Assembly (NCBI GenBank): GCA_021787935.1
Contig: JAJYLC010000003.1
Span: 1 to 61,195, forward strand
Length of the DNA: 61,195 nucleotides
Direction of reading: 5' to 3'
Source of the DNA: Chloroflexota bacterium
GTDB lineage: Bacteria; Chloroflexota; Dehalococcoidia; SZUA-161
The notes under the pieces were generated by a model. The model saw only the letters and a program-made list of their open reading frames with translations, had not been told where the DNA came from and searched no databases. Numbering within the stretch: position 1 is the first letter of the stretch; each line of letters starts with the position of its first letter. Positions 6,624 through 51,534 of the stretch are shown piece after piece. Both the position numbers and the translations under genes were made by a program.

Positions 6624-7415
6624 GTGATGACTGCTCCTGGTATTTCTAAAAAGAGACTTCTAGCCGTCTGCGGCAAGGGAGGCACTGGAAAGACAGCGCT
6701 CACTGCCATGATGACCAGAGTCCTGCTGGACAGCAGCAACTCCGGCAAGCTGCTGCTCATCGATGCCGACCCGGCTATGGGTCTACCCAACGCCCTTGGC
6801 TTAAAAGTCAAGCGGACCATGGGCCAGGTTCGCGAGGAAATCATCAAGACCGCAAGAGGCAGCGACAAGGAGAAAAAGGCTAAGCTGGCCAGTATGCTTG
6901 ACTATATGGTCATGGAGGCCCTTTACGAAACAGATAGCTTCTCGTTACTGGCAATGGGACGCACCGAGACACAAGGCTGTTTTTGTCCGGTCAATAACCT
7001 TCTGCGGGATGCCATAGAAACCCTATCCAGTAATTTCGACACCATCGTTATCGACGGCGAAGCCGGTGTGGAACAAATCAACAGACAGGTCATGCGCCGC
7101 GTAGATACCCTGATTATTGTCAGCGATGCTACATCCAGAGGAGTTCAAACCGCCGCCCTGGTAAAGAAAATGGTGCGAGACGACAAGGTAATACAATGCG
7201 AAAAAATAGGTTTAATCTTCAACAGGGTTCGAGGCAATCAGGAGCTATTGAAACAAGCTGCGCAGGAGATAGGGTTGGATGTCTTTGGTTACGTCCCCCA
7301 GGACGAAAATATAGCCTCCTATGACCTGGTGGGTAAGTCCATCCTGGAACTCCCCGTTACTTCACCCGGACTCGCGGCGATACGTCACATCGTGACCGAC
7401 CACATCCTCAAGTAA
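6624..7415 (+). CDS. cooC: CooC-type nickel-insertion ATPase (MinD/ParA superfamily)
   Basis: Has the deviant Walker A CGKGGTGKT and the CooC-signature CxC metal site (TQGCFCPVNNL). Confidence 0.75.
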   Translation: MMTAPGISKKRLLAVCGKGGTGKTALTAMMTRVLLDSSNSGKLLLIDADPAMGLPNALGLKVKRTMGQVREEIIKTARGSDKEKKAKLASMLDYMVMEALYETDSFSLLAMGRTETQGCFCPVNNLLRDAIETLSSNFDTIVIDGEAGVEQINRQVMRRVDTLIIVSDATSRGVQTAALVKKMVRDDKVIQCEKIGLIFNRVRGNQELLKQAAQEIGLDVFGYVPQDENIASYDLVGKSILELPVTSPGLAAIRHIVTDHILK

Positions 7416-7421
7416 TACCTT

Positions 7422-8888
7422 CTAAGAGTCCAAATACATCTTGCTCTCAGCTACAAACCTGTGGTAATCTGCGAATCGGTTCACAGCCCGGCAAGCCCTG
7501 CGCAGCGAATTGTAGGCTGTGATTCCGGCCTCTCTGAGCTGCCTCGCATATGTTTCAGTATCATGAATCTGCCCCTCCTCCGATAAAGCAACAATCATCG
7601 GCTTGTGCTGAGACATCGGATTAGAGGAGTTAGAGATACGTTTGTGCAACTCGGTTAACACATTAGCCGCCGGGCCCGCAACGAACTCAGCGCCCAGGTG
7701 TAACATGACCATATCTATTTGAGGATCTGCTGCAAGCAATTCATAGGCCCGGTGCAGAGGCGTAATATCCACCACTACACTCGGCACGTCTATCGGGTTT
7801 GCCACCCCCTGATTTACCAGAGAGATAAACTTAAGCAGACCATTTCTTGTATGTTCCGAGAGAGCTGGTAATATAATACCTTCCTCGGCACAGATGTCTC
7901 CGGTGGCTACGCTGCTGCCTCCCCCGACTGCCAGTACGGCTGCCCGTTTATTAGGCGATGGCTCCAAATGGAGGAATGTCATGGTTACCTCGGCCATCTC
8001 TTCAATCGAGTGTACTGCTATGGCTCCCGTCTGTTTGAAGAAGGCCTTCCAGATTTGTTTATCTCCCGCTAGAGAACTGGTGTGTGATGCTGCAGCCCTG
8101 GCACCTGCACTCGTCAGGCCGCCCTTCCAAACAATGACTGGTTTTACCGGATTTATTTGTCTCACAAGCTCCGTAAGCCGCCTGCCATCTTTGACTCCCT
8201 CAAGATACAGGCAGATGATCTGAGTCTCCGGGTCTTTGGCCAGGTATTCAAGGAAGTCAGGGGCATCCAGCAATAGCGCATTACCGTGGCTTATCACCTT
8301 GCTGAAACCTATGCCGAGTTGCGCACCGCGTAACAGGAATATACGTGCGTGGCCCCCGCTCTGGGATACAAAAGCCACAGGCCCACGGACAGGCGGCGTG
8401 TCAGCATGCATCTGCATATTTATTGAGGGTATCTGGAAACCCATGCAGTTCGGGCCGATAACCCGGAGGTTTCCCTTCAAAGCTATCTCACGTATCTCAT
8501 CCTCCAGCTTCTTTCCCTCCGCTTGACCGGTTTCGCCAAAGCCGGAGGTGCATATCTGTACATTAAGCGCCTTGGCTGAAACGCAGTCTCTCACTACCTG
8601 AGGGACTGCGGCGGGAGGTACCGTAATTATGACCAGATCTAGATGCTCAGGGATAGAGATAACACTCGGGTATACTTTGACCCCCTCAATCTCGTTAGCT
8701 TTGGGGTTAACAGGATATACAGACCCCTGGAAACCTGCCTGTCGGAGGATACGAAGAATGCCCGCCCCTGTATACCCCGGGTGCTTGGAGTCATCGTTTC
8801 TGGAAACGCCCACGATGGCGACTGTTCTGGGAGGAAAGCCCTCCCCGAAATTCCAACTGTGTTTCACTAGTCCTACTGTTTTGCTCAC
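7422..8888 (-). CDS. ADP-forming acyl-CoA synthetase, alpha-type polypeptide (CoA-binding plus CoA-ligase domains)
   Basis: N-terminus has PRTVAIVGVSRN...YPVNP (CoA-binding). A succinyl-CoA-synthetase-like flavodoxin domain is present (SQSGG). No ATP-grasp part is fused or adjacent. Confidence 0.7.
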   Translation of the reverse strand: MSKTVGLVKHSWNFGEGFPPRTVAIVGVSRNDDSKHPGYTGAGILRILRQAGFQGSVYPVNPKANEIEGVKVYPSVISIPEHLDLVIITVPPAAVPQVVRDCVSAKALNVQICTSGFGETGQAEGKKLEDEIREIALKGNLRVIGPNCMGFQIPSINMQMHADTPPVRGPVAFVSQSGGHARIFLLRGAQLGIGFSKVISHGNALLLDAPDFLEYLAKDPETQIICLYLEGVKDGRRLTELVRQINPVKPVIVWKGGLTSAGARAAASHTSSLAGDKQIWKAFFKQTGAIAVHSIEEMAEVTMTFLHLEPSPNKRAAVLAVGGGSSVATGDICAEEGIILPALSEHTRNGLLKFISLVNQGVANPIDVPSVVVDITPLHRAYELLAADPQIDMVMLHLGAEFVAGPAANVLTELHKRISNSSNPMSQHKPMIVALSEEGQIHDTETYARQLREAGITAYNSLRRACRAVNRFADYHRFVAESKMYLDS

Positions 8889-18396: not shown

Positions 18397-18416
18397 TTCA
18401 AATTGACCCACTACCC
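18397..18416 (+). repeat. Solo copy of the island inverted-repeat motif (ttcaaattgacccactaccc)
   Basis: Nearly identical to 45212-45231 and related to the 19-bp inverted repeats at 46975-46993 and 50875-50893. Confidence 0.7.
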
Positions 18417-18703
18417 AAGTTTTGGACAAGTTGACATTTGCTTGGAAGTATGTTTATAAGCGTAATCGCTAGCCGAGACGCCTGAAGAGGTAGCTCGAAG
18501 CATGGTAACCCAAGGCAATATCGCGAAGGCTGGAGCTTGGACTCCAGTCTTTTGCTATTTGCTAGGTCTACTATGAACGCGCATTCGTCTGCTTCGCCTC
18601 TGAGCTCGTACATATTTATATGGTGGATGAAGTGAAATAGAACACGCCGACACAAATCGAGTGAATGGGGGGTTTCGCTGTCCGACGAAGGACTTCACCC
18701 ACC

Positions 18704-39937: not shown

Positions 39938-41143
39938 GTGGCTGCAGGAATAAGAGACAAAGTAGCAATTATCGGAATGGGCTGCACCAAGTTCGGGGAG
40001 CTCTGGAACAAAAGCCCGGAAGACCTCATGGTTGATGCTTTCAAGGAACTTCTTGAAGATGCCAAGATAGAGAAAAAGGACATCCAGGCCGCCTGGCAGG
40101 GCGGCCCCGAGTTCACTCCGGGCAGTGTAGGAGACAGCGCTCTGCCCCTGGCTCAGACTTTAAAGCTCCCATTCATACCTGTGACTAAAGTAGAAAACAT
40201 GTGTGCCAGCGGCTCGGAAGCTTTCAGGGGCGCCTGTTATGCTGTGGCCTCAGGAGCTTGCGACATAGCCATGGCGCTGGGCGTGGAAAAGCTCAAGGAT
40301 AATGGCTATGGCGGCCTTCCTGAGTTCTCGCACTATGCCACCATAGGCACCAAGCACAGGATTATCGGGGCGAACCAGACTGCGCCGGGCATGTTCGCTA
40401 TGCTGGCTACCAGATACTTCAACAGATATGGCATCAGCCCGCAGGATGGTAAGAAGATGCTGGCTGCGGTATCAGCCAAAAGCCATCACAACGGCGCTTT
40501 GAACCCCAAGGCCCACCTGCGCAGAGAAGTAACCATCGAACAGATAGTGAATGCGCCGATTGTAGCCTGGCCCCTGGGGCTGTTTGACTGCTGCGGGGTG
40601 AGCGATGGCGCAGCATCAGCCATCGTCTGCCGTGCCGACATGGCAAAGCAGTTCAGGAGCGATCCCGTCTATGTCAAATCCCTCCAGATTGCTGCAACCT
40701 CCGGTGAGGAGGAGATGTACACGGATTACGACTATACTCACGTGGAAACAACCACCCGTGCTGCAGCAAGGGCCTACGCCGAGGCGGGGATAAAGAACGC
40801 CCGCGATGAGATCAGCATGGCCGAGGTCCACGACTGCTTCTCCATCACCGAGGCGGTTACTATGGAGGACTTGCAGTTCAGTCCTCGGGGCAAGGTGATG
40901 GACGATATCATGTCGGGCCGCTTCAATCTGGACGGAGCACAGCCGGTGCAGCCCGACGGCGGGCTGAAATGTTTCGGCCATCCTATCGGCGCTTCCGGGA
41001 TTCGCATGATCTACGAAATGTACAAACAGCTTCAGGGCAAGGCTGACAAGAGGCAATTGAAAAATCCCAAATACGGACTCACTCATAACCTGGGCGGCAT
41101 CCCCTACAGGAGCGTAGTCAGTATAGTCATCGTAGGCAATTAG
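39938..41143 (+). CDS. Thiolase (archaeal/SCP-x type), paralog 1
   Basis: GTG start after AAGGAGG. Has VAIIGMGCTKFG, the nucleophile context VENMCASGS, and GHPIGASG. Confidence 0.85.
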   Translation: MAAGIRDKVAIIGMGCTKFGELWNKSPEDLMVDAFKELLEDAKIEKKDIQAAWQGGPEFTPGSVGDSALPLAQTLKLPFIPVTKVENMCASGSEAFRGACYAVASGACDIAMALGVEKLKDNGYGGLPEFSHYATIGTKHRIIGANQTAPGMFAMLATRYFNRYGISPQDGKKMLAAVSAKSHHNGALNPKAHLRREVTIEQIVNAPIVAWPLGLFDCCGVSDGAASAIVCRADMAKQFRSDPVYVKSLQIAATSGEEEMYTDYDYTHVETTTRAAARAYAEAGIKNARDEISMAEVHDCFSITEAVTMEDLQFSPRGKVMDDIMSGRFNLDGAQPVQPDGGLKCFGHPIGASGIRMIYEMYKQLQGKADKRQLKNPKYGLTHNLGGIPYRSVVSIVIVGN

Positions 41144-42802: not shown

Positions 42803-43981
42803 ATGGGGAGCATCAAAGGTATTAGAGACAAAGTCGCAATAATAGGAATGGGCTGCACCAAATTTGGTGAGCATTGGGATAAAAGCAAAAATGACTTAAT
42901 CTATGAGGCAACCAGGGACGCCCTGGCGGATGCCAAGATGGAGCCTAAAGATATCGAGGCTGCCTGGGGAGGCACCTGGGTATCCGGGTTCGATGGACGT
43001 TGCCTGGCTGACCCCTTGAAGCTGCAGTACATACCCGTCACCAGGGTGGAGAACGCCTGTGCCTCGGGGTCGGACGCCTTCAGAAACGCCTGCTACGCAG
43101 TAGCAGCCGGCGCCTATGACATCTGTCTCGCAGTCGGCTTCGAGAAGCTGAAGGACTCGGGCTGGAGCGGACTTCCCGACCAGCAGAGTCTGCCCAATAA
43201 TAGGTACCCCGACAGGACTGCGCCGGGTATGTTCGCCCTGATGGCTACAACATATTTCTCCAAGTACAAGCTGAGCCCGGAAGAGGGCAAGAGGATGATA
43301 GGCCTGGTCTCGGTGAAAAGCCATCACAACGGCACCCTGAACCCCAGGGCGCACTTGCGCAGAGAAGTGACGATAGAGCAGGTAATGAACGCGCCTATAG
43401 TTGCCTGGCCTCTGGGTCTCTTCGACTGCTGCGGCGTGAGCGACGGAGCGGCAGCCGCTATCGTGTGCAGGGCAGACGTGGCGAAAAAGTACAGGACCGA
43501 CCCTGTCTATGTCAAGGCACTGCAAATTTCCGTGTGCCCCAGCGAGGGCGAGCTCAGGGCCGACTACGATTTCACCACCGTGAAGGCGACAGTCAGGGCC
43601 GGCGAAGCGGCCTATGCCGAGGCCGGGATAAAGAACCCGCGCGAAGAGATAAGCATGGCTGAGCTTCATGACTGCTTCAGCATAACAGAGGCTGTCACCT
43701 GTGAAGACCTCAAGTTCAGCCCCAAGGGTAAAGTGAAGCAGGATATCGAGTCAGGCTTCTTCAACCTGGATGGTGGGCTGCCGGTGCAGCCTGATGGAGG
43801 CCTGAAATCCTTCGGCCATCCCATCGGAGCCAGCGGCGTGAGGATGCTGTTCGAGATGTACCTCCAGCTTCAGGGCAAGGCTGACAAGCGCCAGATAAAG
43901 AACCCCAAGTTTGGCCTGACCCATAACCTGGGCGGCATCCCGGTGAGCAACACGGTGAGCGTGCTCATCATCGGACTGTAA
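42803..43981 (+). CDS. Thiolase (archaeal/SCP-x type), paralog 2
   Basis: Has VAIIGMGCTKFG, VENACASGS and GHPIGASG. Collinear with 39938..41143. Confidence 0.85.
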   Translation: MGSIKGIRDKVAIIGMGCTKFGEHWDKSKNDLIYEATRDALADAKMEPKDIEAAWGGTWVSGFDGRCLADPLKLQYIPVTRVENACASGSDAFRNACYAVAAGAYDICLAVGFEKLKDSGWSGLPDQQSLPNNRYPDRTAPGMFALMATTYFSKYKLSPEEGKRMIGLVSVKSHHNGTLNPRAHLRREVTIEQVMNAPIVAWPLGLFDCCGVSDGAAAAIVCRADVAKKYRTDPVYVKALQISVCPSEGELRADYDFTTVKATVRAGEAAYAEAGIKNPREEISMAELHDCFSITEAVTCEDLKFSPKGKVKQDIESGFFNLDGGLPVQPDGGLKSFGHPIGASGVRMLFEMYLQLQGKADKRQIKNPKFGLTHNLGGIPVSNTVSVLIIGL

Positions 43982-44036
43982 GTAGCACAACGATATAGAA
44001 AGGTTTTGTGAGCGATTATAGCGCTGCTCCACACTA

Positions 44037-44259
44037 CTAACCATGAGAATGAACATGAGGCGATTCACTAGGCTAACAAATGGATTCTCAAAGAAAGTGG
44101 AGAACCTAGAATACGCTGTAGCACTTCACTATATGTACTATAACTTCTGTCGAGTGCAATAAGAGCCTAGCTAATCCTTATCCCAAGACGCTAGCGATGG
44201 CAGCAGGATTAACTGACCCTGTTTGGAATATAGAGGAAATAGTTAGGCTGACATATTAA
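44037..44259 (+). pseudogene. C-terminal relic of an IS1-like (single-ORF DDE) transposase
   Basis: Reads LTMRMNMRRFTRLTNGFSKKVENLEYAVALHYMYYNFCRVQ*, then after a +1 shift KSLANPYPKTLAMAAGLTDPVWNIEEIVRLTY*. This parallels the C-terminus of the intact gene at 48506..49342. Confidence 0.75.
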
Positions 44260-44282
44260 TCGAAATAATCAGTATTAAAGTA

Positions 44283-45131
44283 TTAAAACGATGTTTCTTC
44301 GGCATTAAGGGCATCAACAGGCAACTGGATATTAACCGGTTCATTATAATCGCTGTATGTAGTACTACAAGTAAATGTCACTGTCATGCTGTCCATATTC
44401 AGTAAAGTATTACCAACATCTTGACGCTCCATTTTGAGGGATATATTGGTTTGGTTTTTTACGGGAAGATATTTATCCTTCGATATCCATTCTCTAATCG
44501 AATAGGACTTGAGAATTTTGCTCCAGTCTACGCCATTGATATCAACTAACCCATTCAGATTATCAGCCAAATATGATTTCGTTAGAGTGTCCATTTCCGG
44601 TGTGAATTGAATAACATAGCAGTCAACACCATCAACTTTTTCAACACCTGCCTTGGTAATCTTGTGTGCTGATTTAAGAGCATCGGCATCTCTACCTATC
44701 TGATTACTGATCATCCATGCATCTTGAGTCAACTCCTTTTTCATCCACTGACCGCTATCATTGGGTGAACTCGCTTTTCCATAAAACCACCCATCCATAA
44801 AATACGTGTAGGAAGTGAGATATCGGGTAACCAATTGTCCTGTCTGATCTAAGCTTGATTGCAGAGTTCTCTGCATTTCTCGGTTAATTATATTCAAGGA
44901 AGCAGTCGAGTTGCCCCGGGATATGATATAGCCCTGCCCTGTCTTACTGGTAACTGTTAGCACTTCTTGCGAAGTCTGAGTGTATTTATACGTATTCAAT
45001 GTCGCTATGTTACTCAGCGCATTAGATAATATGGCTTGTGCACCCACCCCGTTGGTACATCCTGAGAGACCAAGGGGCACAACAAGGGCTAGCAATAATA
45101 ACCAGTATAAACCCAAATAATGTTTAGCCAT
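44283..45131 (-). CDS. Hypothetical lipoprotein
   Basis: Signal peptide with lipobox LSGC. AT-rich gene inside the accessory island. No family assigned with confidence. Confidence 0.6.
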   Translation of the reverse strand: MAKHYLGLYWLLLLALVVPLGLSGCTNGVGAQAILSNALSNIATLNTYKYTQTSQEVLTVTSKTGQGYIISRGNSTASLNIINREMQRTLQSSLDQTGQLVTRYLTSYTYFMDGWFYGKASSPNDSGQWMKKELTQDAWMISNQIGRDADALKSAHKITKAGVEKVDGVDCYVIQFTPEMDTLTKSYLADNLNGLVDINGVDWSKILKSYSIREWISKDKYLPVKNQTNISLKMERQDVGNTLLNMDSMTVTFTCSTTYSDYNEPVNIQLPVDALNAEETSF

Positions 45132-45398
45132 GGATGATTTTGGCCTCCACTATCAATGGCGGGCATCTTATATGATTATCTCCAACTATAATACACTAAA
45201 TAGCTTTAGTATTCAAATTAACCCACTACCCGCTTTTTGGTTCTCTTGCATTTTGCTGTATCCTATGATATAGTCCGAACATGGGTAAAAATAGACCTGC
45301 CTGTAAGTCAAAGAAGGGGGCATGTAAGGAAATAAAGCTGCCACCTGATTCGAAAGGCAAGGTCGTACTGAGAAAGACATCACGTAGAATAAACCCCC

Positions 45399-45860
45399 CT
45401 AAATAGTAATTATCAATATCCCTAAAATGACAGCCTCCAAAGCAAAACTTATATAGCATATTCGCAACCATTTAGCTTTGCTATTCAAGACTTTCGCATT
45501 GTCAGGTTCTACATCTGAGATTTGCTTAGCTGACCATAGCAATAATTCATTGTCTGTATATTCCTCTGACATTGTATATGTCTGCAAATCGTTCAAAAGG
45601 GGGTTAATTTTCCACTTCCGTAGCCATAGTGCTGCAATCGCAGATATTGCACAAGCCGCAAAACAGATTAATGCCCCTATGAACAGATAATGCGGACGTT
45701 CAATGAAATGGTGCTTAAAACTGCCAAAGGCTACAGCACCAATTAAGGCACCTGCTATGGCTAGCATTGCAGTAGCCATCATATCAAAATGCCGCCTACT
45801 GCTCTCTTGCTCTTCTTTAGTTAGTTTCGCATAATCGTAATATAATTCATATTTATCCAT
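45399..45860 (-). CDS. Small three-TM membrane protein carried inside the IS6 element
   Basis: Hydrophobic helices MMATAMLAIAGALIGAVAFG, YLFIGALICFAACAISAIAALWL and WLRICYISFALEAVILGILIITI. Starts 8 nt after the transposase stop. Confidence 0.55.
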   Translation of the reverse strand: MDKYELYYDYAKLTKEEQESSRRHFDMMATAMLAIAGALIGAVAFGSFKHHFIERPHYLFIGALICFAACAISAIAALWLRKWKINPLLNDLQTYTMSEEYTDNELLLWSAKQISDVEPDNAKVLNSKAKWLRICYISFALEAVILGILIITI

Positions 45861-45868
45861 ATAGCCTC

Positions 45869-46894
45869 CTAAAACCCGAAAGGCGTTTTTTGCCTCAGCT
45901 CAACTTGCTGAAAAGAAGTTGCATTAAATTTAACGACATCCGTCCAGCTAGTCAATGGCGATTTAATCCCTGCTACTTCGGCAGGTGTCTTATCCTTCAA
46001 GGACATATGCGGACGAAAGTAATTATAGTGAAGCAAGAAGCCGTCCAGAATTTGTTCGGCGGTCTCTATTGTTTTGAAGCCTCTTAATACCTTTGTGCGA
46101 CCTTTTAGAGTCCCGTGGAAACGCTCAATCAGGTTCGTGCTGATTTCCGCAGTTAAGCCTCTAGATTGAATATGTTTGGAATATGACCCGAACACTAACT
46201 CAATCCCGTCAATGTAAGCTGCCAGTTGGTCTGAGATAATGAATCTAGGCGCTTTGCCTGCTTTTTGCCATGCCCTACGCATGATGGTAGCGGCGTCAAG
46301 AGTGGTGCGAGATTTGGACAAATGAGAAGCTAGAAGGAATCGGGTATCCTCGTCAATGATGTCCCAAAACCATAGATTTCGCCCCGTTGCCTTGATAACT
46401 GTCTCGTCCACAACCCAAACGTCTGATACCTTCGGCTGTAAAGGATTCAGTATCGTAGCTGCGATAAAGGTATACCGTATTATCCAACGATAGACAGTCG
46501 AAGGCGCAACGGGATTGTTATAGGTTTCCTTGAAGTGATTGGCTACTAATGCTACAGACATGCCATCATAGAACATATTTAGGGCTGCGCCTATTTGGTC
46601 GGTAGGGGTTTGGAAGTGGTAAGGGGCATCTTTGTCTATAAAAACCCTGCCACACGCCTTGCAAATATAGTTCTGTACCCCGTTTCTTACGCCACGCTTC
46701 ATTATGTCCGTGCTGCCACACCATTTACAGGCAATAAGCTGAGGCTCGGTATAAATCTGTTTCTCTAAGCTTGCTGTGCCAGCAGATTTGTCTAATATCG
46801 TGCATGGCTTAATGCTGATACATTTTGACTGTTTTTGTTCGTGCTCTAACATCTTTTTTAACCTGCGTTCAAATTTCCTATCTCTCTTAACCAT
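45869..46894 (-). CDS. IS6-family DDE transposase with N-terminal zinc ribbon
   Basis: CKWCGS...CKACG ribbon. DDE context VVDETVIKA...IISDQLAAY...NLIERFHGTLKGR, ending RPHMSL. The ATG at 46894 follows AGGAGG. Confidence 0.8.
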   Translation of the reverse strand: MVKRDRKFERRLKKMLEHEQKQSKCISIKPCTILDKSAGTASLEKQIYTEPQLIACKWCGSTDIMKRGVRNGVQNYICKACGRVFIDKDAPYHFQTPTDQIGAALNMFYDGMSVALVANHFKETYNNPVAPSTVYRWIIRYTFIAATILNPLQPKVSDVWVVDETVIKATGRNLWFWDIIDEDTRFLLASHLSKSRTTLDAATIMRRAWQKAGKAPRFIISDQLAAYIDGIELVFGSYSKHIQSRGLTAEISTNLIERFHGTLKGRTKVLRGFKTIETAEQILDGFLLHYNYFRPHMSLKDKTPAEVAGIKSPLTSWTDVVKFNATSFQQVELRQKTPFGF

Positions 46895-47009
46895 CCTGTA
46901 GCCTCCTTTGGGATAGCTACAGGATAGCATTTTCGACTTTAAATTACATCATGGTGCAAGAGAACCCGCTTTTTGGTAGTGTATCATTTTGAATTTTTCC
47001 TTTTCTAAA

Positions 47010-47038
47010 TTGACTTCTAAACCTAGACAGTCTACAAT
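47010..47038 (+). promoter_or_regulatory. Promoter of the methyltransferase gene (probably a leaderless mRNA)
   Basis: TTGACT, 17-nt spacer, TACAAT. The -10 box ends 8 nt before the ATG and there is no Shine-Dalgarno sequence. Confidence 0.5.
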
Positions 47039-47046
47039 CTTCTGCG

Positions 47047-48501
47047 ATGGATACGAACATTATCTACTGTGGTGACAATTTAGAAATCCTGCCTAAATAT
47101 ATTCCTGATGAGTCTATAGACCTGATATATATTGACCCGCCGTTTAACACGAGCCGACAATATGAGGTATTCTGGGGAGAAGCACAGGAGAGGAGGGCTT
47201 TCGAGGATAGATTCGGGGATGTAATGACATATCTCGATTGGATGCGTCCACGGTTGCGAGAGCTACACCGCATATTGAAATCGACTGGCAGTTTCTATTA
47301 TCACTGTGATTGGCACGCTACCCATTATATCAAGGTGGAACTAGACCGCTTGTTTGGCTTCGATAATTTCCAAAATGAGATTATCTGGCGTCGTACTACA
47401 TCTCACGGTGACTCAAAGCAGGGTGCAAGGCATTATGGGCGCATACATGACACCCTTTTATTCTATACTAAAAGTGCTGAATATACATGGAACACTCAAT
47501 TTGTTGAATTTTCGGCAAGCCAAATAAAACAGCAATATAATAAACAAGAAAAGGATGGCAGAAGATACCGACTCGTAACGCCTACTGCCAAAAAGCCTGG
47601 CGGAGACACATCTTATGAATGGAAAGGAGTGCGACCACCAAAAGGCCGTTTTTGGGCATATACTAGAGAGAAAATGGCAGAAATGGATTCCAAAGGACTA
47701 CTCTACTATAGCAAGACAGGGCAACCTTACATCAAATATTATCTGGACGAACGACCTGGAGTAGCCGCACAATCGCTGTGGACGGATGTTAGCCCAATGT
47801 CACCAACTGCCAAAGAACGATTAGGATACCCTACCCAAAAACCTTTAACTCTGCTAGAGCGAATCGTGAATGCCAGTAGCAATGAGGGACAGGTCGTAAT
47901 GGACGCATTTTGTGGTTGCGGAACAACACTTGAGGCTGCGGCCAAGCTAAAAAGAAAATGGATTGGTATAGACTTCTCCCCAACAGCTTGTCGTGTCATG
48001 GCAGAACGTTTAGAAAAGCGATTAGGCCTCAAAGAAGGTATTGACTTCACATTGAAGGACATGCCCAAAACAGTCGACCAACTACACAGAATGCCACCGT
48101 TTGAGTTCCAAAACTGGGCAGTAGTTGCACTCGGAGGAATTCCGAACAAGGTCAAAGTAGGAGATTACGGAATAGATGGAAGGCTCTACTTAGCTGATAT
48201 GGCTAAAGAGGAGAAAACCGTCAAGCGCATATCAGAGAAAGTTGCCCAAGGCATGTTCGAGACCTTAGATAAATGGTATCCTATTCAAGTGAAGCAAGTA
48301 GACAAGGTAGGAAGACCGGATATAGATAAGTTTGAGACAGCTATGCGTAGAGATAAGAGGCTGAAAGGGTACTTTGTGGCTTTCGGATTCTCAGGAGATG
48401 CCACGAAAGAGATACAGCGAGCACAGAAAGTTGAAGGCTTGGAGATAACACCCATCACGGTTGAAGAATTGTTAGGATACGAAAAAACAGCTTTGGACTG
48501 A
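47047..48501 (+). CDS. DNA methyltransferase (beta-class, DPPF) fused to an Mrr-like PD-(D/E)xK nuclease domain
   Basis: Motif IV IDPPFNT precedes motif I VMDAFCGCGTT. The C-terminus has GDYGIDG ... YPIQVKQ, typical of the Mrr catalytic domain. Confidence 0.7.
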   Translation: MDTNIIYCGDNLEILPKYIPDESIDLIYIDPPFNTSRQYEVFWGEAQERRAFEDRFGDVMTYLDWMRPRLRELHRILKSTGSFYYHCDWHATHYIKVELDRLFGFDNFQNEIIWRRTTSHGDSKQGARHYGRIHDTLLFYTKSAEYTWNTQFVEFSASQIKQQYNKQEKDGRRYRLVTPTAKKPGGDTSYEWKGVRPPKGRFWAYTREKMAEMDSKGLLYYSKTGQPYIKYYLDERPGVAAQSLWTDVSPMSPTAKERLGYPTQKPLTLLERIVNASSNEGQVVMDAFCGCGTTLEAAAKLKRKWIGIDFSPTACRVMAERLEKRLGLKEGIDFTLKDMPKTVDQLHRMPPFEFQNWAVVALGGIPNKVKVGDYGIDGRLYLADMAKEEKTVKRISEKVAQGMFETLDKWYPIQVKQVDKVGRPDIDKFETAMRRDKRLKGYFVAFGFSGDATKEIQRAQKVEGLEITPITVEELLGYEKTALD

Positions 48502-48505
48502 CTGC

Positions 48506-49342
48506 CTATTTTGTTAAGTTCACGATTTCTTCAATACTCCAAACGTGGTCTGTGAGTCCTGTTGCCATAGCAGGGGTTCTCGGATAAGGATTAGCCAACG
48601 TCCTATGAGTCCGAGCGAAATTGTAGTGCATGAAGTAAAGAGCAAGGGCAAGCGTGTGATTTTCTAGCTTCTTAGAAAAGGCATTGGTTAATCGGGTAAA
48701 TCTCCTCATGCACATTCTCATGGTCAAGTTCTGGCGCTCTACATAGCTTGTAGAGACCTTTGAAATATCGGGATTGCCTTGTACCACGTGCTTCTCGGTT
48801 CCGATGCACTTAGCAGGACTATACCGTTTCTCATTTTCAGTATCTTGCCCATAGAACTTAACTAATTGTGCATACTCTATCTCTCGCCCAAAAGCCTTTT
48901 CTACCGCTTCGAGATACATCTTATGACCGTCTGTAGTTAACTGCACTCGACTAGCAAGCCTATCCTTCAAGTCTGAAAGAAACTCATAAGCGCAATCAGC
49001 GTCACGAGTGCCAACTTTCCAGCAGGGAACAAGCTTGGTATCAGCATCTATCGCTGTGAACGTCCAGACATCGCCATAGCCAAACTCACTATTGTGTTCC
49101 TCTGGCACATTCTTAGCCTTGGCATAAACGAAGCTCCAAACCTCGTCAACCTGTAGCTTATTACAGGGCAGATTCCGCATGTTCTGATACTGATATGCCA
49201 AACAAGCAGCCCCTACGTCTCGAAGCAGCTTGACCACTGTATTGATAGCCGTGTTGGTTATCCGAGCGGTGCTACGTATTGAGTTACCCTCACAGAGAAC
49301 CTTTATAACCTGTGCTTGTCTCTCCAAACTCATCTTGTTCAT
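48506..49342 (-). CDS. IS1-like single-ORF DDE transposase
   Basis: N-terminal HTH; LQVDEVWSF, LTTDGHKMY and YVERQNLTMRMCMRRFTRLTNAFSKK. No terminal inverted repeats of its own were found. Confidence 0.7.
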   Translation of the reverse strand: MNKMSLERQAQVIKVLCEGNSIRSTARITNTAINTVVKLLRDVGAACLAYQYQNMRNLPCNKLQVDEVWSFVYAKAKNVPEEHNSEFGYGDVWTFTAIDADTKLVPCWKVGTRDADCAYEFLSDLKDRLASRVQLTTDGHKMYLEAVEKAFGREIEYAQLVKFYGQDTENEKRYSPAKCIGTEKHVVQGNPDISKVSTSYVERQNLTMRMCMRRFTRLTNAFSKKLENHTLALALYFMHYNFARTHRTLANPYPRTPAMATGLTDHVWSIEEIVNLTK

Positions 49343-49371
49343 CGTAGTCTCCCTATTTCCTAACTGACTAT

Positions 49372-49400
49372 ATTATACCACACCGCTCACGCATTGTCAA
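49372..49400 (-). promoter_or_regulatory. Consensus sigma-70 promoter of the IS1-like transposase
   Basis: The minus strand reads TTGACA, 17-nt spacer, TATAAT. Confidence 0.6.
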
Positions 49401-49451
49401 TAGTTTTGCGCTATATTTCTCGTCATTTTCGCAAAATATATAGCAAGCATA

Positions 49452-49480
49452 TTGACAATTCATGCTTGCTATATTATACT
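49452..49480 (+). promoter_or_regulatory. Promoter of the P63C gene with a flanking palindrome
   Basis: TTGACA, 17-nt spacer, TATACT. The inverted repeat agcaagcat (49442-49450) / atgcttgct (49462-49470) brackets the -35 box. Confidence 0.55.
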
Positions 49481-49515
49481 ACCAATAAGCAAACTTTCAA
49501 GGGGGTAGCATAAAG

Positions 49516-50568
49516 ATGGCTAGTGCAAAACAGCAAGCATTGTGGAACAATAGCGCCTCAAAAGGTGGCAAAATCAGAGCAGAAAGACTATCACCCGAAA
49601 AACGAGCCGATATTGCAAAAAAAGCTGCAATTACTAGGTGGAGAGGTAGTCAAGATAATGGTAGCAATAATCTTATAGCCTCATTTCCAGGTACTCTTTT
49701 CATTAATGACTTAGTATTGCCTTGCGCTGTGCTGGACAATGGGGTAAGAGTTCTATCAGAGACTGGAATGACAAAGGCTTTGGGTAGCACTCGTGGAGGT
49801 GCACACTGGAAGCGTTTGCATGAAAACCCTAGTAGAGATTATTTGCCAGTATTTTTGTCGGCCAATAATCTAGAGCCCTTTGTTTCACCAAGTTTGCATG
49901 CGGCTCTCTCGAATCCAATCCTGTATAAAACCAAGAGCGGTGCCATCGCTTATGGTGTATTAGCTACTCTCGTGCCAGAAATTTGCGAGACGTGGCTAAA
50001 AGCTAGAAAAGTTCGTGGTGTTCTTAACGCCGCTCAAGAGGAAATAGCAGACAAAGCAGAACGTCTCCTTGGTGGTCTAGCGAGGGTGGGCATCATAGCC
50101 TTAATTGATGCTGCGACTGGATATGAACAATATAGAGACAGATATGAACTCAATAAGATTCTTCAGGCTTATGTATCAAAACAATTACTTCCTTGGGAAC
50201 AACGCTTTCCGGAGGATTACTACAAGGAATTGTTCAGACTTAGAGGGTGGTCTTATAGCCCACCACAACCTAAGCGCCCTAGAATCATCAGCCAACTGAC
50301 GAGCGAATTGGTATATCAGAAGTTGCCAGAAGGTGTATATGCTGAATTGAAATCACGCAATCCAATAATCAAAGACGGAAGGCGAGCCCACAAGAACTTC
50401 CAATTTCTTACTGAAAATGTGGGCAATCCTCATCTGGAAAAACAGTTGACAGCCGTCATAACTTTAATGAAAGCATCACCGAATTGGGGGACTTTTAAGC
50501 GCTTATTCAATAGAGCATTTGCAAAAGAGGGTGTGCAGAGCGAAATGTTTGAGGGTGAAGACCTCTAA
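49516..50568 (+). CDS. P63C-domain-like protein with an N-terminal KGG basic motif
   Basis: N-terminus has SKGGKIRAERLSPEKRADIAKKAAITRW. The body resembles phage-associated P63C proteins; this is recalled, not searched. Confidence 0.5.
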   Translation: MASAKQQALWNNSASKGGKIRAERLSPEKRADIAKKAAITRWRGSQDNGSNNLIASFPGTLFINDLVLPCAVLDNGVRVLSETGMTKALGSTRGGAHWKRLHENPSRDYLPVFLSANNLEPFVSPSLHAALSNPILYKTKSGAIAYGVLATLVPEICETWLKARKVRGVLNAAQEEIADKAERLLGGLARVGIIALIDAATGYEQYRDRYELNKILQAYVSKQLLPWEQRFPEDYYKELFRLRGWSYSPPQPKRPRIISQLTSELVYQKLPEGVYAELKSRNPIIKDGRRAHKNFQFLTENVGNPHLEKQLTAVITLMKASPNWGTFKRLFNRAFAKEGVQSEMFEGEDL

Positions 50569-50828
50569 AGTTTTGCCCACCTAGCCTTGGCTGCTCTCCT
50601 TGCCGATTCCTTGCGCTGTTCCGGAGTCATCTTGCTCGCTCTAGCCTTACCACCTTTGAGTCCACCTAAACGTCCTAAAGCAACTGCCGCAGCATGTCTA
50701 TCTATTGAGGACTCAGGAGGAACTTCCTTCGCTTCAACTTGAGGTTGTTCGGTAGCTTCCTGGACTACTCTAAACGCAGTTATAGCGAAGTCATAGTCTC
50801 GTTTCGGTTTTCTCTTTTTCCCTGCCAT
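50565..50828 (-). CDS. Small basic protein with a C-terminal KGG motif
   Basis: Contains LKGGKARASKMTPEQRKESARRAAKARWAK. It is convergent with the P63C gene, with overlapping stop codons (ctaa). Confidence 0.5.
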   Translation of the reverse strand: MAGKKRKPKRDYDFAITAFRVVQEATEQPQVEAKEVPPESSIDRHAAAVALGRLGGLKGGKARASKMTPEQRKESARRAAKARWAKL

Positions 50829-50834
50829 GACACC

Positions 50835-50863
50835 ACAATACTAAATCGCTCACGCATTGTCAA
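50835..50863 (-). promoter_or_regulatory. Promoter of the small KGG gene
   Basis: The minus strand reads TTGACA, 17-nt spacer, TATTGT. The 19 nt cgctcacgcattgtcaata (50847-50865) are identical to 49384-49402. Confidence 0.5.
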
Positions 50864-50982
50864 TAATGTCTAATTTCAAAATGATACACTACCCGCTTTT
50901 TATTCGCCTTGACTATTCTCGTAAACTAAGGCAAAATATAGCTTTGTTGGGTCTGGCAAAATGGTAGCAGGCAGGATGCGCT

Positions 50983-51534
50983 ATGGATTTGATGCAGGCT
51001 ATTAAGGGACGAAGGAGTGTTCGCAAATACAAGACTGACCCTATCAGCGATAAGGCTGTCGAGACAGTCCTCGAAGCTGCCAGGTGGGCTCCGTCCTGGA
51101 CAAACAGTCAGTGCTGGCGGTTTGTGGTGGTCCGGGACTTTCAACTAAAGGAAAAACTGGCGGCTATTCTGGACCGAGAGAAGAACAGGTCGGCCCCAGC
51201 GGTGAGAAATGCTCCGGTGGTCATAGTGGCCTGCGCTGAGCTGGGGAAATCGGGGTATTATAGGGGTCAGATAAGTACAGATAAAGGCGACTGGTTCATG
51301 TTCGATACGGCTTTAGCTATGCAGAACCTGACGCTGGCAGCCCATGCCACCGGCCTGGGCACTGTACATATCGGCCTGTTCGATGCCAAAGAGGTGGCCA
51401 GAGTCCTGGATGTCCCCGATGGGGTGGCAGTGGTAGAGATGACCCCGCTGGGCTACCCCGATGAAGAGCCACATCAGTCCAGCAGGAAAGAACTTACTGA
51501 GATCGCGTTCAAAGAAAAATACGGCAAGCAATAG
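50983..51534 (+). CDS. Nitroreductase family protein
   Basis: N-terminal IKGRRSVRKY and PSWTNSQCWRFVVV motifs. Confidence 0.8.
   Translation: MDLMQAIKGRRSVRKYKTDPISDKAVETVLEAARWAPSWTNSQCWRFVVVRDFQLKEKLAAILDREKNRSAPAVRNAPVVIVACAELGKSGYYRGQISTDKGDWFMFDTALAMQNLTLAAHATGLGTVHIGLFDAKEVARVLDVPDGVAVVEMTPLGYPDEEPHQSSRKELTEIAFKEKYGKQ

Follow-up and report, generated by a model that had tools for sequence, protein, structure and literature searches.

What moves a block of four genes that is bounded by perfect inverted repeats, yet abuts the same 8-bp sequence as a neighboring insertion sequence (IS) of a different family? This question is raised by contig JAJYLC010000003.1 of the Chloroflexota bacterium assembly GCA_021787935.1 (class Dehalococcoidia), of which positions 1 to 61,195 were analyzed (hereafter "the window"). 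Within it lies a 3.9-kb unit that an initial annotation took for a non-autonomous cargo transposon, mobilized in trans by the transposase of the adjacent IS6-like element. Comparison with relatives makes a different answer very probable: the unit would be an autonomous, cargo-carrying IS of the IS1 family, the cuts of which are placed at a fixed distance from promoter -35 boxes, and which was the third element to be stacked at the promoter of a nitroreductase gene.

The unit spans positions 46975-50893, i.e., 3,919 bp. Its first 19 nucleotides, GGTAGTGTATCATTTTGAA (46975-46993, plus strand), recur as an exact reverse complement at 50875-50893, and the inverted repeat reaches 22 nt at 95% complementarity (46975-46996 and 50872-50893). 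Allowing up to three mismatches, this 19-mer had three matches in the window, compared to 0.01 expected from shuffled sequence. The 8-mer CGCTTTTT, of which the window holds three copies (starting at 45231, 46967, and 50894), abuts both ends of the unit (46967-46974 and 50894-50901), while the third copy, at 45231-45238, lies on the far side of the IS6-like element. The terminal repeats, the flanking 8-mers, the use of the same 8-mer by the neighboring IS6-like element, and the four open reading frames (ORFs) were thus all correctly described in the initial annotation. The copy on the left stands before the terminal repeat in direct, not inverted, orientation, which fits a target-site duplication. 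At a larger scale, the unit forms the right edge of a low-GC island (~44.0-50.9 kb; 40-44% GC vs. a background of 52-58%), bordered by a thiolase gene (stop codon at 43981) and the nitroreductase gene (ATG at 50983).

To place these features in context, we fetched 160 loci encoding homologs of the unit's transposase (42-94% identity) from metagenomes and genomes, the latter mostly Dehalococcoidia but also including Acidobacteriota, Proteobacteria, Planctomycetota, and others. In nearly all sufficiently long loci, the 19-mer flanks the transposase homolog on both sides, with 0-2 mismatches in Dehalococcoidia-type relatives and as close variants, e.g., GGTAGTGGGTCAGTTTGAA, in distant ones. A total of 96 end pairs were recovered, which delimit elements of 1,948 to 7,329 bp, with no relative <1.9 kb among them. 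Perfect 8-bp direct repeats flank 73 non-redundant relatives; their sequences vary by site, with an A/T-rich middle, and none corresponds to CGCTTTTT. This search for further 19-mer pairs and comparison of their flanks, which the initial annotation had proposed, leads us to interpret the 8-bp repeats as true target-site duplications. The alternative of a fortuitous duplication, with CGCTTTTT and the 19-mer forming parts of one long repeated motif, appears exceedingly improbable: CACTACC-CGCTTTTT does occur twice in the window (45224-45238 and 50887-50901), but none of the 73 relatives with perfect repeats uses this 8-mer, a solo end within the window is followed by CAAGTTTT instead, and the left-hand copy is a direct one, as a duplication predicts.

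The same comparison addresses which enzyme acts on these ends. The transposase encoded within the unit matches the Pfam domain DDE_Tnp_IS1 (PF03400; 34.7 bits vs. a cut-off of 24.1), and its homologs number in the thousands, many named "IS1 family transposase" in databases and one named ISNisp5. A candidate DDE triad (D66, D138, E202) is invariant across relatives of 42-100% identity, and the window transposase keeps all family-invariant residues, these three included. Since the same 19-mer brackets transposase homologs across loci while the IS6-like lineage keeps other ends, the 19-mer is the cognate end of the internal IS1-like transposase. Mobilization in trans by the neighboring IS6-type transposase had been suggested by a likeness between the 19-mer and the left end of the IS6-like element (GGTTCTCTTGCATTTTGCT, 45239-45257), which direct comparison reproduced (12 of 19 positions, including GGT and CATTTTG), and by the fact that both element types make 8-bp duplications and are here flanked by the same 8-mer. 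This scenario is nevertheless highly unlikely. Of the two IS6-like ends, only one has the CATTTTG likeness; conserved ends of a different type (GGTTCTSTTGCA...TGTA) characterize the IS6-like lineage, and the two enzymes are distant relatives, with ~25% identity over a stretch of 97 residues. The unit itself encodes a full-length transposase, and dozens of loci combine the 19-mer and an IS1-like transposase without any IS6-like gene. The earlier reading therefore holds insofar as the unit is a real transposable element with true duplications, but not with regard to its supposed lack of autonomy. A composite transposon was considered as well and rejected: there are no two complete IS copies, only end repeats of 19-22 bp around one central transposase gene.

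Clustering of the ORFs of 92 elements separated a constant core from exchangeable cargo. The transposase was present in all of these elements and a small basic ORF in 72, always on the same side of and on the same strand as the transposase, with its start most often 66-67 nt from the tip. Cargo occupies two slots. The first, between the small ORF and the transposase, contains HTH and Peptidase_M78 genes (20 elements), P63C (9 elements, including the window), HigB, PIN_10 with DUF433, Gp49 with HTH, and others. The slot downstream of the transposase contains DNA methyltransferases (13 elements, including the window), SocA/Panacea, and others, and the cluster of the window-type methyltransferase occupies this slot in 13 of 14 related elements. 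Cargo, which also includes NYN, varies among close relatives. The initial annotation had considered all four genes of the unit as cargo; this applies only to the P63C and methyltransferase-nuclease genes, the transposase and the small ORF (its "KGG gene") being core. The methyltransferase is of the N6/N4 DNA type (PF01555, E 2e-48; PADLOC MTase_II, E 5e-79), and its C-terminus has a weak match to the Mrr_cat restriction-endonuclease-like domain (E 5.5e-4).

Searches of Pfam, NCBIfam, PADLOC, and PDB sequences returned no match for the small core protein. It ends in GGLKGGKARAxKLTPEQRKEIAKKAAxARW, and its C-terminal motif can be written more generally as GGxKGGKARAxxLTPEQRxEIAxKAAxARW. The N-terminus of the P63C protein (49516-49650) repeats this motif (GGK-RA-LSPE-R-IA-KAA--RW), with BLASTP E-values down to 1e-11 between elements. 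The motif common to the small protein and the P63C N-termini is an uncharacterized short basic module without Pfam or PDB match. At the DNA level, a promoter-like motif containing TATTGACAAT occurs three times in the unit, upstream of the transposase (49375-49402), P63C (49450-49477), and small ORF (50838-50865) genes, and two of these three copies have the spacer ATGCGTGAGCG in common, which suggests a common operator.

We then asked where these elements insert, by aligning the 146 outward flanks of the 73 elements on their duplications and scoring offsets 1-40. An exact TTGACA was found at offset +8, i.e., 7 bp past the duplication, in 24 of 146 flanks, compared to zero or one at each of the other 39 offsets (binomial P ~4e-60). 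When one mismatch was allowed, 34 of the 73 elements had this hexamer at +8, never on both sides, with 23 on the transposase-distal side and 11 on the small-ORF side. A -10-like hexamer (TAnnnT) followed 16-18 bp after it in 19 of 29 such flanks, vs. 9 of 98 others, which indicates that these flanks are sigma-70-type promoters reading away from the element. A crude test for outward-reading ORFs beyond the -35 box did not discriminate between the two groups (23/29 vs. 73/98 flanks). The window follows the same geometry, as its junction reads ...CACTACC, CGCTTTTT, ATTCGCC, TTGACT-17-CAAAAT, so that the -35 box starts 7 bp past the duplication and 15 bp from the element tip (target site with -35 box: 50894-50914). 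A second example is provided by the solo variant end TTCAAATTGACCCACTACC at 18397-18415, which has no transposase nearby and is followed by CAAGTTTT, GGACAAG, and TTGACA, again with 8+7-bp spacing (18397-18436). To the left of this end (~16.5-18.4 kb), the DNA is of lower GC and contains ORFs without Pfam match; the end is probably what remains of a further IS1-like element with cargo.

Such an association with promoters could also arise if insertion were near-random and only harmless insertions survived. Intergenic, promoter-sparing insertions would be expected to persist, and the A/T-rich middle of the duplicated 8 bp would fit a general preference for A/T-rich intergenic DNA. Selection cannot, however, give single-base precision, with 24 flanks at +8 and at most one at any neighboring offset, nor does it explain the reuse of the same 8 bp in the window and in loci L050, L051, L124, and L205, and we thus consider survival alone a quite unlikely explanation. 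A mimicry of IS ends by the -35 hexamer was considered and rejected as a general explanation: positions 8-13 read TTGCAY in IS6-like ends, but TATCAT in IS1-like ends. Separately, three different IS1-like elements, in L072, L101, and L102, sit in one kind of palindromic target, TACA-CGGTTTCG-TGTA or its complement, with TGTCAA (L072 and L101) or ATTCAA (L102) instead of TTGACA at offset +8. Such palindromes may be either another class of preferred target or a motif that is repeated in the host.

The same fixed distance was observed for the IS6-like neighbor and its lineage. This 45239-46966 element has an IS6-type DDE transposase (NCBIfam IS6, 125.1 bits vs. a cut-off of 125) that also includes an IS1/IS1595-type zinc domain, GGTTCTGTTGCA-type ends, and an 8-bp duplication, in line with IS6 membership. 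Across 11 distinct sites of the lineage, a -35-like hexamer (up to one mismatch) lies exactly 7 bp past the 8-bp duplication in seven, compared to ~0.1 expected: the window, L175, L177, L192, L205, L207, and the right junction of L169. End-to-end stacks of IS6-like elements were found in L188, L192, and L205. The 153-aa passenger ORF of the window element has a weak match to the Pycsar transmembrane effector PycTM (PADLOC E 2e-5), and a viral-contig scan with the IS6-like transposase returned no match.

Within the window, a third element completes the stack. The stretch at 44037-45230, which has a transposase pseudogene, a passenger gene, and a variant end (Table 1), is a truncated older relative of the 3.9-kb unit, and the three copies of CGCTTTTT would then result from three elements inserted at one promoter-proximal position. 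Because the promoter side still has the 8 bp, the 7-bp spacer, and the -35 box after an insertion, the same target becomes available again. Stacks in L050, L051, and L124 have the corresponding layout, with an older end, an 8-bp spacer identical to the duplication of the next element, and the promoter located past the most recent insertion. For the window, the simplest history would comprise three successive insertions at the nitroreductase promoter, with the oldest element farthest away.

Table 1 Features of the 3.9-kb unit and of the surrounding element stack (positions in the window; TSD, target-site duplication; TIR, terminal inverted repeat)
Feature	Position	Strand	Remarks
5'-truncated IS1-like element	44037..45230	+	oldest stack member
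Transposase pseudogene fragment	44037-44253		contains stop(s); ~72% aa identity to residues 206-277
Lipoprotein passenger gene, DUF6612/SCO4651-like	44283-45131	-	
Variant end TTCAAATTAACCCACTACC	45212-45230		15/19 match to unit end; right-end orientation
Third copy of CGCTTTTT	45231..45238	.	left of IS6-like element, directly after TTCAAATTAACCCACTACC
IS6-family element	45239..46966	-	1728 bp; middle of stack; ends GGTTCTCTTGCA; CGCTTTTT on both sides
IS6-like passenger ORF	45399-45860	-	153 aa
Zinc-finger IS6-like transposase	45869-46930	-	353 aa
TSD copy CGCTTTTT	46967..46974	.	left flank of 3.9-kb unit and right flank of IS6-like element
TIR, transposase-distal end	46975..46996	+	first 19 nt perfect (GGTAGTGTATCATTTTGAA), 22 nt at 95%; 19-mer also brackets homologous transposases in L003-L102
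Methyltransferase gene with weak Mrr_cat tail	47047..48501	+	cargo; slot downstream of transposase
IS1-family transposase gene of the unit	48506..49342	-	278 aa; single ORF; N-terminal HTH
Promoter/operator-like 28-nt motif	49375..49402	-	upstream of transposase gene; TATTGACAATGCGTGAGCG... on minus strand; 89% identical to copy upstream of small ORF
P63C-domain gene	49516..50568	+	cargo; slot between small ORF and transposase; PF10546, E 5e-32
Small basic core ORF ("KGG gene")	50565..50828	-	87 aa; start codon (50828) 66 nt from tip
Sigma-70-like promoter of small ORF	50835..50863	-	inside unit; TTGACA-17-TATTGT, 10/12
TIR, small-ORF end	50872..50893	-	
TSD copy CGCTTTTT	50894..50901	.	promoter-proximal side
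Host promoter of nitroreductase gene	50909..50937	+	TTGACT-17-CAAAAT; 46 bp before ATG (50983); conserved in syntenic L201

The closest relative of this region, L201 (nitroreductase 95% identical at the amino acid level), is syntenic and matches the window as far as position 44017 and then from 50906 onward, so that homology resumes 3 bp before the same TTGACT, in a promoter kept as TTGACT-17-CACAAT. At the position of the stack, L201 carries a different 1,064-bp segment (6859-7922; 39% GC) with a 259-aa ORF without Pfam match. This segment ends in ...GAGGAGAACC, of which the last seven bases (GAGAACC) correspond to an IS6-type end located exactly 15 bp before the -35 box. A possible partner end, GGTTCCCCTTTGTTGTG, lies at position 6922, but there is no transposase and no pair of 8-bp repeats that match; the segment may derive from an IS6-like element, either through decay or as a non-autonomous form. 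Foreign DNA has thus repeatedly ended at the promoter-proximal position in this lineage.

A different order of events can be proposed for the stack: the 3.9-kb unit would have landed beside the remnant end first, leaving an 8-bp spacer that the IS6-like element entered afterwards, attracted by abutted ends rather than by the promoter. The IS6-like element does lie exactly in the spacer between two IS1-type ends, the IS6-like element of L188 lies between two other IS6-like ends, and the stacks in L056 and L064 have no clear -35 box at +8. On the other hand, the promoter rule alone accounts for the window with no need for a second targeting mode, the element closest to the promoter is intact while the one farthest away is the most decayed, and the unstacked IS6-like sites in L175, L177, and L207 also follow the -35 rule. 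We consider this alternative order unlikely, although it retains appreciably more weight than the scenarios discussed above.

Several observations weigh against an autonomous IS1-family element that reached the nitroreductase promoter third. The best NCBIfam family of its transposase is IS1 (E 7e-18), yet with 65 bits vs. an equivalog cut-off of 100. Unlike classical members, the unit reaches 3,919 bp and its 278-aa transposase is encoded in a single ORF without insA/insB' frameshift. As many as 39 of the 73 elements have no TTGACA (up to one mismatch) at +8, and the rule is thus either a strong preference or one for which weaker promoters went unscored. The IS6-like sample comprises 11 sites, several on fragmented and possibly chimeric metagenome contigs; at some IS6-like junctions, sequence from different samples has visibly been joined. 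More generally, many contigs are short metagenome assemblies, and the evidence is entirely comparative, with no transposition observed. Whether the IS6-like element arrived before the 3.9-kb unit is likewise unproven. Finally, the search for empty sites, also proposed in the initial annotation, yielded no exact one: exact-protein look-ups with the transposase, nitroreductase, and thiolase retrieved only this locus, on three contigs, and the closest relative, L201, carries other foreign DNA at this position.

Weighing these points, we still favor an autonomous element, for which the following mode of propagation can be outlined. The comparisons establish the limits of the element, its cognate transposase, genuine 8-bp duplications, two slots with exchangeable cargo, a link to -35/-10 motifs that is precise to the base, and repeated use of the site. 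Its core consists of the 19-22-bp inverted repeats, the single-ORF transposase with helix-turn-helix and DDE domains, and the 87-aa basic protein encoded just inside one end, with the P63C gene and the methyltransferase/nuclease-like gene carried in the two variable slots. Its own transposase would move the unit and generate the 8-bp duplication, by a staggered cut placed so that the -35 box (TTGACA) falls 7 bp past the duplication and 15 bp from the tip, while the promoter, reading away from the element, stays intact. The site may be found by the transposase or by the small protein, either via promoter-bound RNA polymerase/sigma or through direct reading of TTGACA. Each insertion would regenerate the 8 bp, the 7 bp, and TTGACT, and hence allow reuse of the site, here by the IS1-like element that is now a remnant, then by the zinc-finger IS6-like element, and then by the 3.9-kb unit. 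Stacking may in turn let related elements recombine and swap cargo, with which the duplicated or nested ends in L010, L031, L041, L051, and L096 are consistent. The extra, nested, or doubled IS1-like ends lie beside complete elements (in L041/L043 as well as in the other four loci), for instance two right ends 36-55 bp apart or two left ends 880 bp apart; they look like leftovers of earlier stacks, at which cargo might be exchanged.

Among known systems, the IS1 family is the obvious reference. Its members are generally described as having ends that begin with GGnnnTG and target duplications of 8-9 bp, and classical IS1 elements, of ~0.8-1.2 kb, encode insA and insB' with -1 frameshifting. The unit resembles them in its homologous DDE transposase with an N-terminal helix-turn-helix, in its ends (GGTAGTG), and in its 8-bp duplication. 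It differs, beyond size and gene structure, by a further small ORF that is conserved but lacks a zinc finger and is not related to InsA, by passenger genes in two slots, and by promoter-directed insertion. We therefore regard the unit as an atypical IS1 member, from a single-ORF, cargo-bearing fringe of the family.

IS elements with passenger genes have been described as transporter IS (tIS) by Siguier, Chandler, and colleagues, with ISDsp3 as an example from the IS6 family (PMC7986276). Like these, the unit holds its passenger genes within one pair of inverted repeats together with a single cognate transposase, and duplications flank the whole; in this lineage, however, cargo is the rule and is swapped between close relatives. 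The neighboring 1728-bp element, with its 353-aa zinc-finger transposase and one passenger ORF, is itself similar to ISDsp3 and the zinc-finger clade h (PMC7986276). The abutting IS copies of the window also recall the targeted insertion of IS26-type elements (IS6 family), but this process needs an identical resident IS and makes no new duplication (PMC7986276), whereas here each element has its own 8-bp duplication and the neighbors belong to different families.

The closest parallel in target choice comes from the Mutator-like TnGBS, ISLre2, and ISKra4 elements, which insert 15-17 bp (13-17 bp from the inverted-repeat junction) upstream of sigma-A -35 boxes (PMC3942029; Brochet et al. 2009, cited there). 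These leave the promoter intact and, where their ends are symmetric, integrate in either orientation; it has been proposed that they contact the transcription initiation complex (PMC3942029). The 3.9-kb unit and its relatives likewise insert at a fixed distance, with 15 bp from tip to -35 box, and have symmetric ends found in both orientations (23 vs. 11). The unit's transposase is nonetheless IS1-like, and that of its neighbor IS6-like, rather than Mutator-like (p-MULT 3/4), and conjugation genes are absent; the unit thus resembles the TnGBS group in target choice without being a member. We found no report of fixed-distance promoter targeting by IS1 or IS6 lineages in a literature search of incomplete coverage. 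The occurrence of a single ~15-bp geometry in three transposase families would favor a host structure as guide over DNA reading by each enzyme. In its broadest form, insertion at a fixed distance upstream of -35 boxes would be a convergent mode of at least three unrelated DDE families, with a host structure as guide and promoters as stacking sites, a generalization that we consider plausible but somewhat more doubtful than not. The guide might then be promoter-bound RNA polymerase, notably sigma region 4, or the DNA bend that it makes. If so, cargo-bearing IS would gather, decay, and recombine at promoters, producing small defense and toxin-antitoxin islands with reshuffled cargo. Two further matches could bear on -35 recognition, as leads only: Sigma70_r4_2 (PF08281, sigma-70 region 4.2) is among the precomputed Pfam hits of the IS6-like homolog P0226, and is also a weak match in a Mu-transposase-like gene (L207/L208, 4369-5257) adjoining an IS6-like copy.

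For annotation purposes, the four genes would be described as one autonomous mobile element rather than cargo awaiting a helper, and the 44.0-50.9 kb low-GC island as a pile of three transposons at one promoter. A promoter-sparing "safe harbor" rule documented so far only for Mutator-like elements now recurs, at unchanged spacing, in two lineages, IS1-like and IS6-like, which are widespread among Dehalococcoidia and also present in Acidobacteriota, Proteobacteria, Planctomycetota, and further phyla. Two questions thereby become testable: do bacterial transposases recognize promoters via RNA polymerase, and by which route do IS with cargo form and trade their passenger genes, among them toxin-antitoxin and restriction-modification genes? 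On the practical side, the rule can serve to predict where insertions occur and to flag real promoters in uncultured phyla.

Elsewhere, a scan of the whole window with Rfam detected no RNA family. Upstream of the island, a 300-nt direct repeat (40378-40677 vs. 43216-43515; 76% identity, period 2,838 bp) stems from two paralogous gene pairs in tandem, each with a thiolase and a ChsH2-like gene, i.e., an ordinary gene duplication.

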